NCBI GenBank assembly: GCA_964474755.1 | Contig: CAYYUG010000011.1 | Location: 8,698 to 72,697, forward strand | Reading direction: 5' to 3' | Source: an uncultured Rhodospirillaceae bacterium | Lineage (GTDB): Bacteria > Pseudomonadota > Alphaproteobacteria > UBA8366 > GCA-2717185 | DNA length: 64,000 nucleotides | Part shown: positions 2,293 through 14,483 of the stretch, piece by piece | Layout of the letters: each line of letters opens with the position of its first letter | How positions within the stretch are numbered: the first letter of the stretch is position 1 | Program-made: the position numbers and the translations under genes | Notes under the pieces: generated by a model | Databases searched by the model: none | The model's input: the letters and a program-made list of their open reading frames with translations, nothing else | Told to the model about the DNA's origin: nothing

Positions 2293-2684
2293 GACACACC
2301 TCCCATCGCTTGGCCAACGAGCCATGCAAGCCCAGTTAACACGATAGATGCCGCAAAAACGATGTAACCGGTATTCCGCGCGGTATCGAGTTCGAAACCC
2401 ACTCCAACATCCCAGCCAAGATGCCGGATACCGTTGCAAAGATGATAGAACAGTGCCCAAGTCCACCCGAGCAGACATATCTTGCCTAACCAGTGGGAAA
2501 CGAACCCCTGCACTAAATCAAACGATGCCACACCGCCTGCCAGCCCGAGCAGCCACCACACCATGAGTAACGTTCCCACGGACAAGCCCACACCAGATGC
2601 GCGGTGTAGAATCGAGAGCGCCATGGTCCATTGCCACGCGTATATCTGCAAATGCGGCGATAGCGGTCTGTCACCGTTACTCAT
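2289..2684 (-). CDS. sdhC: succinate dehydrogenase cytochrome b556 subunit
   Basis: MSNGDRPLSPHLQIY... is a typical SdhC N-terminus. The start is taken at the ATG at 2684; the track ORF extends to 2723. Confidence 0.85.
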   Translation of the reverse strand: MSNGDRPLSPHLQIYAWQWTMALSILHRASGVGLSVGTLLMVWWLLGLAGGVASFDLVQGFVSHWLGKICLLGWTWALFYHLCNGIRHLGWDVGVGFELDTARNTGYIVFAASIVLTGLAWLVGQAMGGVS

Positions 2685-3458
2685 AACCACCTCTTCAATT
2701 ACGATTCCAAATACCTGAACCACTTTGGCTCTATAAATAATATCATAGCTTTCGTCGCAGGTTGCAGTAAAAAGCCCTGCCGTCTCCTAATAGATAATGT
2801 TGAAAATCCACATAGCGACAAGTACCACAACGCTTAAAGCTTTGCCGTCCAGTTGTTGACGCTTATCCCAAGACGGTGTCGACAAAATATTGTGAACTAA
2901 TAATAAATCGCCATCATAAAAAATACCGCAGGACAATGGCGAAGTGGTTTGTATGTCAGTAGCCGATTTATACACAAGAAATAATGCGCGCCGCGCGCTA
3001 TTTTTGTAGACACGCCCTTCTATGGTTTCCACCATCGGTAGTGGCACTCGTTTACGTCGAATTCAACATGTCGCCATTCACCTTAAGTCATTTTCAGCTG
3101 ATCTCAGACCTGTTGGCGGCGGTCGACGGCGACAGTTTTGGAAACGGACATTGATTTCCAACCATATTCGTTCAACTCTGACGGGAATCGATGCAAATAT
3201 TGTGCTCGGATGCCGCCTGCGGGACATAAGTTTTCTGACGACACACAGATTAGGGAGAACGGTATTTTCTTCGGTTCGTCAAACCGCACTGAATGCCACC
3301 CTACCGCCAAGAATGCGAAGGGAAATGGTTCCCAGTGCTCTTCTTTCCCAATGACAATACCCAGCGTCGAGCATTGGAGACGTTTGTCACGCAGACGTGT
3401 CTGACGACCTGTTTCTGCGGTTGAACCATGAGCTAACTCTGACGCAAGATGCTGCCCC

Positions 3459-5954: not shown

Positions 5955-7067
5955 CTAAGCTACCTGACTGTCCAACTCCCGCAAGATAGAGTCGCCCATT
6001 ACAGTTGTCGATACTCGAACTGCGCCCGGTGCCATGATATCCGAGGTGCGGACACCGGACTTGAGCACGGCCTGCACAGCGTTATCCACCAGACTGGCAT
6101 CCTCTTCCAAGTCGAAGGAATACCGCAATAACATGGCAAAGCTAAGCAGGCAGGCAAGTGGGTTGGCCATATCCTTGCCGGCAATGTCCGGCGCACTGCC
6201 ATGCACCGGTTCGTATAGCGCACGGCGGCGGCCGCTATCGTCCGGCGCCCCGAGTGTTGCCGAGGGCAGCATGCCAAGCGATCCAGTTAGCATAGCGGCA
6301 CAATCCGATAAAATATCACCAAACAGATTATCGGAGACAATGACGTCGAACTGGAGCGGATCGCGGACCAGCTGCATAGCGCAGTTATCTGCATACATAT
6401 GGCTTAGCTCCAGATCGGAATAAGATTCCTTGTGCAACTCGGTCACTACCTGACGCCACAATACGCCGCTTTCCATTACGTTGGCCTTCTCAACCGAGGT
6501 CACCTTGCCCCGGCGTTGTCGAGCAAGACCGAAGGCCACCGCGGCAACTCGGCGAATTTCCGATTCGGTATACGTCTGCGTGTCAAAACCACGGCGCTGT
6601 CCATCCTTAAGTGTCTCAATGCCGCGCGGTGTGCCAAAATAGATACCACCCGTCGATTCACGCACGATCATAAGATCGAGACCCTCAATCACCTCTGGCT
6701 TGAGAGACGAGGCGTCTAGCAGCGCGTTAAATGTCAGCGCAGGGCGCAGATTGGCGAACAGGTCGAGATCTTTACGTAGGCGTAGCAGTCCCATTTCCGG
6801 CCGCAAATCGCGCGGCGCATCATCATATTGCGGACCCCCCACCGAACCGAACAGTACCGCATCCGCGGCCATCGCATCCGCCATTGTTTCTTCGGTGACC
6901 GGGGTCCCGTGCGCGTCATAGGAGGCACCACCGACGAGCCCTTCCTTAACCTCGAATGTGACCTCTCGGCGCTGGTCAAACCAGTCGACGACCCGCCGCA
7001 CCTGAACCATAACCTCCGGTCCAATGCCATCGCCCGGCAAGATAAGAAGTGATTTGTTCGCTGCCAT
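5955..7067 (-). CDS. leuB: 3-isopropylmalate dehydrogenase
   Basis: 370 aa. [22 protein letters not shown] and full-length LeuB-like sequence. Confidence 0.95.
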
Positions 7068-7091: not shown

Positions 7092-8516
7092 CTATTCTAT
7101 TGAACGTTTTTCGAGATCACGCACATCGGTCAGACGCCCCGTCACCGCCGCTGCGGCGACCATCGCCGGGCTGGCCAGATGAGTTCGTCCCTCGCGGCCT
7201 TGCCTGCCCTCAAAATTTCGATTGGAGGTCGACGCACAGCGCTGCCCTGGTTGGATGTAATCACCATTCATGGCGACGCACATGGAGCAGCCCGGCTCGC
7301 GCCAATCAAATCCAGCCTCCTTGAAAATCTTATCGAGTCCACGCGCTTCAGCTTGTTCCTTGACCAGGCCCGACCCCGGGACCACCATCGCCTCCACACC
7401 GTCCGCAACTTTTCGGCCGCGCGCAATCGCAGCAGCAGCTTCCAGGTCCTCGATCCTGCTGTTAGTGCAGGACCCAATGAAAGCGCGGTCTATAGTCACT
7501 TCCGTCATCGCCGTACCCGGTGCTAACCCCATATAATCAAGCGAGCGCTGGATCATCCGTCGCCGATCGTCATTGAGGGCATCTGCCGGATCCGGCACTA
7601 CTCCATCGATCGGTGCGACTTCTTCTGGATTGGTGCCCCAGGTCACCTGCGGTGCTATCGAATCCGCCACGAGAGTTATTTCCTTATCAAAGAAGGCACC
7701 TTCGTCGGTCGGCAGTGTCTTCCAATATGCAACGGCTCGGTCCCAATCCGCGCCTTTCGGCGCCCGCGGTCGACCTTCGCAATAGGCGAACGTCGTCTCG
7801 TCCGGTGCAATCAGACCAGCACGTGCACCGGCTTCTATAGTCATGTTCGACACTGTCATCCGCCCTTCCATCGACAGTCCGCGGATCGCTGATCCGGCGA
7901 ACTCAATAACATGCCCCGTGCCCCCCGCCGTGCCAATCGCACCAATAATCGCAAGAATTATGTCTTTGCCGGTGCACCCAGCGGACAAGTCGCCATCGAC
8001 TGTCACCCGCATATTCTGCGGTTTTGGAGTGCGCAGCGTTTGCGTTGCCAGGATATGCTCGATTTCTGAGGTGCCTACCCCCATAGCGAAGGCCCCAAAC
8101 GCGCCATGGGTCGCGGTGTGACTATCACCACAGAATAGGGTCACGCCCGGAAGAGTGAACCCTTGCTCCGGCCCGATGACATGAACAATGCCCTGGCGCT
8201 TGTCCATCAAATCGAACAGCTCCACGCCGAACTCTTCGTAATCTTTATAGGCTTGTTCGACAATTTTGCGCGCTACAGGATCCTCAATCGCCTGATCGCG
8301 GGGATGCGTCGGGATGACATGATCCATCACACCCAGAACCTTGTTCGGGCAACGCACCTTGAGCCCAGCCATCCGTAACCCCTCGAAGGCCTGTGGCTGC
8401 ATCTCCATTATAAGCAGTCGATCAGTATAGAGGATGCTGAGGCCGTCCTCAGTGGTGTCAACAAGATGGGCATCCCATATCTTGTCGAACAGCGTACGCG
8501 GTGCCGCCATGGTCAT
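7092..8516 (-). CDS. aconitase-family hydro-lyase large subunit, divergent LeuC paralog
   Basis: 474 aa, roughly two-thirds identical by eye to the LeuC at 9156..10562. It keeps GDSHT and the Fe-S Cys motifs ([21 protein letters not shown]). It carries [13 protein letters not shown] and DHVIPT where the neighbour has [14 protein letters not shown] and DHNIAT. Its start overlaps the leuD stop (ATGA). Confidence 0.8.
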
Positions 8517-9136
8517 GCCGGTGGCGAACTATTAAGCCAAGGCTGCGCTTGGTTCTGTTGCGCCTCGAAACTATCAATCTTATCGCCCTTCTGCATAGTA
8601 AGACCGATATCGTCGAGCCCATCCAGCAGGCATTCGCGGCGGAAGGCATCCAGCTCGAACGACACAGTCACACCGTTCGGGCGCTTGATCTCCATGTTGA
8701 CCAGATCAATCGTCAGCTCCGGATTTTCCGTGTCGCTGGCGTCGGCCATTAGGGCGTCAAGATGCTCCTTGGAAATGCGGATCGGCAGGATACCGTTCTT
8801 GAAGCAGTTGTTGTAGAAAATGTCGGCGAAGCTAGTCGAGATGACGCACCGGATGCCAAAATCCAGCAGCGCCCATGGCGCGTGCTCACGCGAGGACCCG
8901 CATCCGAAATTATCGCCCGCCACAATAATTTTAGCATCCCGATAGGGGTCCTTGTTCAGAATAAAGTCGGGCTTCTCTCTGCCGTCCGGCTCGAAACGCA
9001 TCTCTTCGAACAGCACCTTGCCAAGACCGGTGCGTTTAATGGTCCGGAGGTGCAATTTGGGGATGATCTTATCGGTATCGATGTTAATCATGTCCATCGG
9101 CGCCGCGACGCCGGTCAGCGTGTTAAATTTATCCAT
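8513..9136 (-). CDS. leuD: 3-isopropylmalate dehydratase small subunit
   Basis: 207 aa. [26 protein letters not shown], typical LeuD. Confidence 0.93.
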
Positions 9137-9155
9137 CGCTCTATCTACCTCCCCC

Positions 9156-10562
9156 TTATCCGTTCAATAATTCACGTACATCGGTCAGCTTGCCGGTAAC
9201 CGCGGCCGCTGCTGCCATCGCCGGACTAACCAGATGGGTCCGACCGCCGCGCCCTTGCCGACCCTCAAAATTGCGGTTTGAAGTCGCAGCACAACGTTCG
9301 CCCGGCTGCAACTGATCGACATTCATCGCCAGGCACATGGAGCAACCTGGCTCGCGCCAATCGAATCCGGCATCGATCAGGATCTGAGCCAGGCCTTCCT
9401 GCTCGGCCTGTTGCTTGACCAAACCGGATCCTGGCACGATCAGGGTGCGGATGCCTTCCTTGACCTTGCGGCCCTCGGCGACCTCGGCAATTGCCCGAAT
9501 GTCTTCGATTCGACCGTTAGTGCAGGCGCCAACGAAGATCGTGTCGATCTCGACATCGGTCATTTTAGTGCCCGGTTTCAGACCCATATACTCACAAGCA
9601 CGTTTGACCGCCGCTGCCTTGTCCGAATTTGGTGCGTCCTTCGGATCGGGTACCACACCGGTTATCGGCACCACGTCCTCAGGGCTGGTACCCCAGGTAA
9701 CCTGCGGCACAATCTCGCTAACATCCAAGGTCGCTTCTTTATCGTAAGTCGCGCCTTCGTCAGACGGCAAGTTCTTCCAGTGAGCGACGGCAGCGTCCCA
9801 ATCTGCTCCCTTCGGGGCATAGGGCCGACCTTTGAGATATTCAAAGGTTTTATCATCTGGTGCAATCAATCCAGCACGCGCGCCAGCTTCGATCGTCATG
9901 TTGGAGACCGTCATACGACCTTCCATCGATAGGGATGTAATCGCAGGCCCGGTGTACTCAATCACGTGACCGGTGCCAGCTGCAGTGCCTATTTTGCCAA
10001 TTAGTGCCAAGATCAGATCCTTAGCGGTGCAGCCAAACGGCAGATCGCCATCCACAGTGATCCGCATGCTCTTGACCGGCGCCTGCAACAGCGTTTGGCT
10101 CGCCATAACATGCTCAACCTCCGAAGTGCCTATACCAAAGGCGAGCGCGCCGAGGGCGCCGTGCGTCGCAGTGTGACTATCGCCGCACACCAATGTCACG
10201 CCCGGCAGGGTAAAGCCCTGTTCCGGGCCAATGATATGGACGATACCGTTGCGCGGATCGTCAATCTCGAAAAGAGTGACACCGAAATCAGAACAGTTAC
10301 GCCGCAAGGTGTCGATCTGCAGCTGTGAATCCTCCGGGATTGCCTCCGTTCGGTCGGTAGCGATGTTGTGGTCAATCACCCCGAGGGTCAGGTCCGGGCG
10401 GCGCAACTTGCGGCCGGCTAGGGTCAGGCCCTCGAAGGGCTGCGGGCTGGTTACCTCGTGGATTATGTGACGATCGATATACAGCAGGCAGGTCCCATCT
10501 TCCTGCGTATTCACCACATGATTGTCCCAAATCTTTTCGAGAAGTGTGCGCGGCTTGGACAT
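9156..10562 (-). CDS. leuC: 3-isopropylmalate dehydratase large subunit (canonical motifs)
   Basis: 468 aa. [48 protein letters not shown] and [10 protein letters not shown] are all present. Confidence 0.93.
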
Positions 10563-10641
10563 TAGGCTCCCTCGTCCTGGCTGAATTTCGCTTATGAGTG
10601 AACGCCGTTGCGATTATATCTGAAGTCGTCTCATACTTTAA

Positions 10642-10672
10642 CGCCTGCTATCGCAGGGCGGAGACCCTCCGC
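10642..10672 (-). terminator. tandem GC hairpins between rplS and leuC (possible terminator/attenuator)
   Basis: Minus strand reads GCGGA-GGGUC-UCCGC, then CGCCCUGC-GAUA-GCAGGCG, followed by UUAAAGUAU. This lies about 95-120 nt after the rplS stop. The U-tract is weak. Confidence 0.3.
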
Positions 10673-10764
10673 GAATTTGGTGACCACAACGATTTAAGCG
10701 TTTCCACTCCCATCTTTGCAAAGCAGAATATTTCACAATTCGATGAAACGCACTCTCAAGGTGA

Positions 10765-14242: not shown

Positions 14243-14483
14243 GCGTGCCCCTATCACTTAAAGCTGTCACTAAAACGCCAAATGCGCCAGTGCGCGAAAC
14301 TCGCGGACTGGCGTAGCCCCTCGGGACTGGAAACCAACGTTTCCCGAATGAGAACGGGCTTTTACGCCGGCATTCAGCGCAAGTCAAGCAACCGCCTCCG
14401 CACAAACGGTGTTTACATCACCCCTAGTTTCGTACCAACATTAATGAAGCTGTTTTAAAAACAGGGGCAAAGAGGGGCTCGAC

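Follow-up and report, generated by a model that had tools for sequence, protein, structure and literature searches.

Why does a leucine operon with a single small subunit of 3-isopropylmalate dehydratase encode two large ones? The question is raised by a 64,000-nucleotide stretch of DNA from an uncultured Rhodospirillaceae bacterium (assembly GCA_964474755.1, contig CAYYUG010000011.1, positions 8,698 to 72,697; called the window below), the minus strand of which carries leuC (here leuC1), leuD, a second leuC-like gene (leuC2) and leuB. An earlier sequence-only reading had taken leuC2 for a neofunctionalised large subunit that shares LeuD with its neighbour. The gene order, coordinates and strand given there are exact, the open reading frames (ORFs) matching leuC1-leuD-leuC2-leuB, and the feature is real, conserved and far beyond chance. 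As an explanation we tentatively favour, from sequence comparison, that LeuC2–LeuD would constitute a second 2-alkylmalate hydro-lyase, expressed alongside the canonical enzyme, sharing its LeuD and feeding LeuB.

The two large subunits of the window are 65% identical. Translation bore out the differences that had been pointed out between them: the LeuC2 loop is 13 residues long in comparison with 14 in LeuC1 (H35M, V37M, loss of T38 and S39Q in LeuC1 numbering), and DHVIPT stands in LeuC2 in the place of DHNIAT in LeuC1. GDSHT, the three cysteines of the iron-sulphur cluster (C350, C410 and C413 of LeuC2) and a further motif of 10 residues are common to both. M37, M39, the one-residue deletion and V67 were found in all 63 sequences of the LeuC2 clade, and Q40 in 62 of them, whereas the same columns of canonical alphaproteobacterial LeuC are occupied by H, V, T and N (163/163). 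The clade is thus recognised by its M-E-M-Q-P-Q-A-F loop and DHV[IV]PT, and it does not match the canonical D-R-H-x-x-H-E-[VI]-T-[ST]-P-Q and D-H-N of these 163 sequences and E. coli. We also considered that the variant motif might be a common or harmless polymorphism of LeuC; this was ruled out by its absence from the 163 canonical sequences and from E. coli LeuC (DRHLVHEVTSPQAF, GRPVR, DHNVST).

Nineteen positions cleanly split the LeuC2 clade from canonical LeuC, among them H35M, V37M, the loss of T38, R51L and N66V, and 14 of the 19 lie within the first 145 residues (binomial P = 1.4e-4). The substitutions in the area of the pocket replace polar residues by Met, Val, Leu or Phe, and the pair R356E and E389R resembles a swapped salt bridge. 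D65-H66, D131-S132-H133, N224, E228, C350, C410, C413, N432-R433 and R438 are present in 63/63 sequences of the clade and H112 in 62/63. The altered segments had been said to contribute substrate-binding and catalytic residues. The first part of this claim stood, as the recognition loop and the residue beside the Asp-His pair are changed; the second did not, since the catalytic residues are retained. LeuC2 resembles an active hydro-lyase subunit, the recognition loop of which is remodelled, shorter and more hydrophobic.

The H-[DE]-x-T element of the loop is retained in 4KP1, 4NQY, 4KP2 and E. coli LeuC, whereas LeuC2 reads M-E-M-Q. Being common to E. coli, the archaeal isomerase and homoaconitase, the element spans enzymes whose divergence is very ancient. 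The large subunit of the M. jannaschii isopropylmalate/citramalate isomerase has V-H-D-I-T-G-P and DHQ, and that of the homoaconitase T-H-D-G-T-T-P and DHN. Isopropylmalate isomerases have V or I at x, homoaconitase has G and LeuC2 has Met, a pattern which suggests that this residue faces the variable side group of the substrate. In aconitase, Gln72 is reportedly a substrate-recognition residue (Lauble et al. 1992), while Ala74, Thr567, Asp568 and Ser571 are said to support active-site side chains. By motif matching we tentatively take H35 of LeuC to be the putative counterpart of Gln72, V37 that of Ala74, and T-D-x-x-I of LeuD that of Thr567/Asp568/Ser571. The profile alignment to pig aconitase begins only at position 87, and no account of large-subunit residues contacting the substrate was found in the literature searched.

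LeuC2 belongs to the LeuC/HacA branch of the aconitase superfamily, as judged from its fold, its score and its catalytic residues. Its AlphaFold model (pLDDT 83) had its best Foldseek matches in 4KP1 and 4KP2 (target-normalised TM-score 0.86–0.90), and Pfam Aconitase (PF00330) covers both large subunits end to end (for LeuC2 553 bits, residues 11–460). All four leu products exceeded the curated NCBIfam cut-offs of the LeuC, LeuD and LeuB models.

The search for homologues, which covered 5.8 billion proteins, returned matches graded from 100% to 70% identity, all of them with the variant signature, followed by ordinary alphaproteobacterial LeuC at ≤71%. The clade so delimited comprises 63 distinct sequences, 70–100% identical to one another and ≤71% identical to any canonical LeuC. 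In a distance-based tree rooted with E. coli it was monophyletic with a bootstrap of 200/200. Left out of this tree as an outgroup was P0064, a metagenomic protein of 472 amino acids (aa) that looks chimeric: its first ~200 residues are those of a different LeuC with DLHLVHEITSAQAF and the remainder is nearly identical to LeuC2 of the window, which would make it an assembly artefact or else a recombinant. The syntenic orthologue of LeuC in the relatives is the rplS-adjacent LeuC1 (C1 clade bootstrap 198/200), including those relatives that lack leuC2, and not LeuC2, which falls into a separate clade with other paralogues encoded after leuD.

The ratio dN/dS of leuC2 in comparisons with relatives amounted to 0.04–0.10, similar to the values for leuC1, leuD, leuB and trmD. 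The candidate explanations of a pseudogene and of a recent duplicate were ruled out by this strong purifying selection, the 70% depth of the clade and the invariant catalytic residues. The sequence-only reading was right to reject both, and the case that it had named as its own refutation, recent duplicates with the variant motif common in true LeuC, was checked by phylogeny: the tree displayed an old monophyletic paralogue instead.

To follow the distribution of the gene, a degenerate DNA pattern for MEMQPQAF was run on 185,579 species-representative genomes and on metagenome contigs. After the exclusion of chance matches outside LeuC (5 of 17 in genomes and 2 of 15 in metagenomes), LeuC2 was present in 12 of the 185,579 genomes, each of them assembled from a metagenome and assigned to uncultured marine Alphaproteobacteria or to 'Rhodospirillaceae', and in 13 metagenome contigs, one of them identical to the window. 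The order leuC1-leuD-leuC2-leuB was found in more than 25 loci, in lineages with an identity of just 72–78%. Where the contig allows, it extends to (trmD-rplS-)leuC1-leuD-leuC2-leuB(-asd), even in lineages the proteins of which are only 72–82% identical to those of the window, and in a more distant relative, which lacks LeuC2, the order is rplS-leuC-orf71-leuD-leuB-asd. An ORF of 71–73 aa is conserved between leuC and leuD in three related loci (L019, L020 and L045). No Pfam family matches it, its copies have in common G-x-D-x-x-F-G-R-D and, at the C-terminus, W-A-L-R-x-R-R, and it is absent from the window, which has a spacer of 19 nucleotides (nt) instead.

As reported before, leuD ends and leuC2 begins within a shared ATGA. 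In the closest relatives (92% identical) the leuD stop is TAA and the start is the second ATG, 2 nt later, so the true start of leuC2 may be at 8510, giving a slightly shorter protein. Whichever start applies, leuD and leuC2 are tightly coupled: of 28 loci, 16 have the leuC2 start at -4 from the leuD stop, and in none does the distance exceed +19. The leuC2-leuB spacer of the window measures 24 nt, and no terminator-like site was found on the coding strand inside the leu block. Co-transcription and coupling with leuD and leuB imply that both large subunits are made simultaneously, which fits two different activities better than an isozyme for stress or a specific condition. The claim of a single leuD holds for the locus, as no second leuD homologue was found in the 64-kb window.

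LeuD and LeuB differ as well between operons with and without leuC2. All 24 LeuD proteins encoded beside LeuC2, the stand-alone pairs described below included, have K23 (after the DTD motif) and L162, while the six LeuD without LeuC2 have Q or A at 23 and I or F at 162. LeuD has retained its GSSRE-type motif, and the adjacency and coupling of leuD and leuC2 are conserved, again including the stand-alone pairs. LeuB encoded beside leuC2 reads RESTGG (residues 136–141 in the window) in 26 of 26 cases, whereas REL occurs in 6/6 LeuB without leuC2 and in three solved isopropylmalate dehydrogenase (IPMDH) sequences (Acidithiobacillus 1A05, Arabidopsis IPMDH2 and Burkholderia 4IWH). The RESTGG motif sits in the strand that bears the substrate-binding Arg and the catalytic Tyr of LeuB. 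Judged from the sequences, these changes would fit an adaptation at the level of the pathway.

A subclade nested in LeuC2 (bootstrap 187/200) consists of stand-alone leuD-leuC2 pairs, overlapping (-4 or -1) and having neither leuC1 nor leuB nearby. The persistence of this subclade suggests that LeuC2 and LeuD can function together outside the leu operon. One pair occurs in a genome labelled Gammaproteobacteria, and the neighbours, which vary between loci, include TauD, PhyH, Rieske and GMC enzymes, a family III CoA-transferase and M20/M24 peptidases. This subclade bears on the view that LeuC2–LeuD is an unrelated hydro-lyase, for example a catabolic one of the maleate hydratase or dimethylmalate dehydratase type, which is no more than a passenger in the leu operon. 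Catabolic roles of LeuCD homologues are known, the stand-alone pairs sit among oxygenases and oxidoreductases in other bacteria, and in one locus (L034) a TauD-family gene begins 5 nt past leuC2. We nonetheless regard such a passenger as unlikely: the neighbours differ from locus to locus, the stand-alone form is derived and confined to the nested subclade, the loci with the conserved order (>25) place leuC2 between leuD and leuB with spacers of only 2–24 nt, and LeuB co-varies with leuC2. A conserved TauD partner of the stand-alone pairs was considered separately and rejected, as TauD genes adjoin them in two loci and are non-orthologous, with a mutual identity of 29–35%.

In a sister lineage the operon reads leuC1-orf73-leuD-leuC2b-leuC3-leuB, with three large subunits and one leuD, in three independent loci. 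C2b has HEVLSPQAF and CDSHT; C3, which forms its own family of 28 clusters, has HE[GA][ST]TPQAF and DHVVPT. In the E. coli-rooted tree LeuC2 grouped with C3 in 173/200 and with C2b and C3 together in 123/200 bootstraps, and therefore a single ancient duplication within Alphaproteobacteria is the probable origin of the extra large subunits downstream of leuD. The LeuB of this lineage carries LPGDY[AV]GPE in place of LPGDGIGPE.

The number of large subunits also matters for the notion that the isomerisation is split into half-reactions, with one large subunit dehydrating 2-isopropylmalate and the other hydrating the alkene to 3-isopropylmalate, or with all three proteins joined in a LeuC1–LeuD–LeuC2 assembly. 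Co-expression in a fixed ratio would suit such a division, and half-reaction splits are known in the superfamily: fungal and Thermus homoaconitase only hydrates, and methylcitrate dehydratase works with aconitase. The loop changed in LeuC2 is reportedly classed as substrate recognition in aconitase (Lauble et al. 1992). However, close relatives manage with one large subunit, the stand-alone leuD-leuC2 pairs have no leuC1 nearby, and the three large subunits of the sister lineage would be left unexplained. A split of this kind appears very improbable.

According to the explanation that we favour, namely a second hydro-lyase sharing LeuD, an old duplication inside an alphaproteobacterial leu operon would have given rise to LeuC2, the substrate-recognition loop of which was then remodelled. 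LeuC2 would be a functional [4Fe-4S] hydro-lyase large subunit, co-produced with LeuD via translational coupling, and would form a second heterodimer, LeuC2–LeuD, beside the canonical isopropylmalate isomerase LeuC1–LeuD. The second heterodimer would dehydrate and rehydrate a 2-alkylmalate-type substrate other than 2-isopropylmalate, or handle 2-isopropylmalate differently, and its product would be passed to the single, co-adapted LeuB; the large subunit and not the small one would set the specificity. Citramalate/citraconate (isoleucine synthesis) is the simplest candidate substrate, but this is a guess and nothing in the window favours it specifically. Homoaconitate and methyl-branched substrates, put forward earlier, are guesses too. 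LeuC2 fails the homoaconitase HacA models NF040615 and TIGR01343 (240 bits with a cut-off of 550 and 319 bits with a cut-off of 386), and its loop M-E-M-Q is unlike H-D-G-T of HacA, to which the sister paralogue C3 (H-E-G-S-T) is closer. A bolder version would make the system a combinatorial enzyme, in which a single LeuD serves large subunits that differ in specificity, two here and three in the sister lineage, substrate choice lies with the large subunit, contrary to what holds for plants and archaea, the reaction of LeuC2–LeuD is new to LeuCD enzymes, and LeuB with its RESTGG motif oxidises the product, opening a new branch of 2-oxoacid elongation. We hold this version to be less likely than not.

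Several points weigh against a changed activity. Both copies score as LeuC equivalogs (LeuC2 with 733 bits, the TIGR00170 cut-off being 560), and this model does not separate the LeuC2 paralogue from true LeuC. The recognition region KLHLRT of LeuD is unchanged with and without LeuC2, which points to a substrate with a similar hydrophobic side group. Gln40, new to the altered loop of LeuC2, might just stand in for the lost His and leave the substrate as it was. The correlations with LeuD and LeuB all come from one lineage and could be single coincidental events each, and a stand-alone pair could be the only isopropylmalate isomerase of its genome, making LeuC2 a true LeuC. No pathway partner in the form of cimA, leuA or ilvA was found among the ~45 annotated ORFs of the window, and no description of a LeuC2 paralogue in the literature searched.

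Some of these points speak directly for an isozyme, that is, for a LeuC2–LeuD that still isomerises isopropylmalate (and citramalate) and differs in physical properties, such as a cluster pocket that is more shielded, tolerates oxidants or spares iron, or different kinetics. The passed LeuC cut-off and the unaltered LeuD recognition loop are in line with it, and so is the fact that no cluster ligand or catalytic residue has been lost. Superoxide and peroxide are known to attack isopropylmalate isomerase, aconitase and fumarase both have paralogues that are stable under stress, and the Met, Val, Leu and Phe replacements round the pocket of LeuC2 could restrict the entry of solvent or oxidant. 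Moreover, the stand-alone pairs have no consistent partner gene, as for a housekeeping enzyme. Still, we consider the isozyme somewhat unlikely. One tightly coupled operon without internal promoter or terminator signal leaves no separate transcriptional control, unlike in known stress isozymes; the His and Thr missing from LeuC2 are conserved in E. coli as well as in the archaeal isomerases and homoaconitase, and their loss should affect substrate binding; and the change of LeuB in a motif constant among all compared IPMDH would be left unexplained.

Compared with E. coli-type LeuCD (TIGR00170/TIGR00171), LeuC2 has the same fold and length, is 65–71% identical to alphaproteobacterial LeuC, and retains the cluster ligands, the catalytic residues, the site in the leu operon and a LeuD-type partner gene. 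It differs by lacking the invariant His and Thr of the H-E-V-T-S-P-Q loop, by the loop being one residue shorter, by N66V and R51L, and by its presence in addition to canonical LeuC. The pairs of M. jannaschii, MJ0499/MJ1277 (isopropylmalate/citramalate) and MJ1003/MJ1271 (homoaconitase), represented by 4KP1, 4NQY and 4KP2, are paralogous hydro-lyases that serve parallel 2-oxoacid elongation in one organism, and it is their structures that the LeuC2 model matches best. There, however, each large subunit has its own small subunit and H-D-x-T is kept, whereas here one small subunit stands beside a changed large one. Jeyakanthan et al. (2010) reportedly located the specificity of archaeal isomerases in the small subunit. 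The catabolic enzymes dimethylmalate dehydratase DmdAB and maleate hydratase HbzIJ and the alternative isomerase supQ/newD of Salmonella are LeuC/LeuD homologues recruited outside leucine synthesis, and small subunits can combine with large subunits that are not their own. Unlike leuC2, the genes of these systems are described as lying outside the leu operon, with a separate subunit pair for each enzyme. The isopropylmalate isomerase of Arabidopsis consists of LSU1 and SSU1-3, and the shared partner serves both leucine synthesis and a derived chain elongation (PMC7308503). It is the small subunits that differ and determine the function in Arabidopsis; the locus described here is the mirror image, large subunits varying on one LeuD. 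In functional terms, this plant enzyme and the paired archaeal isomerases are the nearest analogues.

Automatic annotation and the databases name the products of leuC1 and leuC2 alike, as '3-isopropylmalate dehydratase large subunit', so that the second copy counts as redundant in metabolic reconstructions of these marine bacteria, which are abundant but uncultured. If LeuC2–LeuD has a substrate of its own, a step or a whole branch would be added to amino-acid or 2-oxoacid metabolism. The large subunit would then be able to set the specificity, which would be of use to engineers of 2-oxoacid elongation pathways, and the ~19 substitutions would be a natural set converting one specificity to another. 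If it is an isozyme, it would be the first duplicated large subunit of isopropylmalate isomerase kept for robustness. The features of the window and of the related loci are collected in Table 1.

Table 1. Features of the leu region of the window and of related loci (window positions unless a locus is named)
Feature	Position	Strand	Description
leuC1	9156-10562	minus	canonical 3-isopropylmalate dehydratase large subunit, 468 aa, DHNIAT; TIGR00170 751 bits
leuD	8513-9136	minus	207 aa, sole small subunit at the locus; TIGR00171 249 bits (cut-off 116)
leuC2	7092-8516	minus	divergent large-subunit paralogue, 474 aa (472 aa if the start is 8510); TIGR00170 733 bits
leuB	5955-7067	minus	3-isopropylmalate dehydrogenase, 370 aa, RESTGG codons 6645-6662; TIGR00169 469 bits
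ATGA (leuD stop/leuC2 start)	8513-8516	minus	overlap read directly; alternative leuC2 ATG at 8508-8510
Rewired substrate-recognition loop, LeuC2 residues 32-44	8385-8423	minus	13 codons, translation checked
DHVIPT, LeuC2 residues 65-70	8307-8324	minus	Asn beside the catalytic Asp-His pair replaced by Val
K23 codon of leuD	9068-9070	minus	after the DTD motif
Stand-alone leuD-leuC2 pair	L022 7072-9116		outside any leu operon
Stand-alone leuD-leuC2 pair	L023 6427-8471		outside any leu operon
Stand-alone leuD-leuC2 pair	L027 7381-9416		outside any leu operon
Stand-alone leuD-leuC2 pair	L028 7381-9416		outside any leu operon
Stand-alone leuD-leuC2 pair	L034 1521-3559		outside any leu operon
Three-large-subunit operon	L019 5721-12041		related alphaproteobacterial lineage
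Three-large-subunit operon	L045 2311-8608		related alphaproteobacterial lineage
Three-large-subunit operon	L046 2311-8642		related alphaproteobacterial lineage
ORF of 71-73 aa	L019 7127-7348		between leuC and leuD
ORF of 71-73 aa	L020 9401-9616		between leuC and leuD
ORF of 71-73 aa	L045 3711-3932		between leuC and leuD
Leader between rplS and leuC1	10563-10764		untranslated, 202 nt
ffh sRNA (RF01793) match	14277-14328	minus	36.4 bits (threshold 35)
AT-richer segment	~2500-3450		GC 0.49, no long ORF

Some further observations concern LeuC1 and the surroundings of the operon. LeuC1 is 88% identical to LeuC of the lineage represented by L020 and L021, in which TrmD, RplS, LeuD, LeuB and Asd reach just 65–75%, and it is just 71–75% identical in relatives closer than that lineage. 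This mismatch may mean that leuC1 was replaced by transfer or recombination.

The ORFs of the window place ffh, rpsP, rimM, trmD and rplS, in minus-strand order, before the four leu genes, and asd after them. The leader between rplS and leuC1 holds a GC-rich inverted repeat, GCGGAGGGTCTCCGC, and may be a regulatory leader of the leu genes. The Rfam match to the ffh sRNA lies directly upstream of ffh. The segment in which the GC content falls is situated between the gene of the succinate dehydrogenase anchor and pdxK, a slot which in relatives holds TPR or transposase genes.

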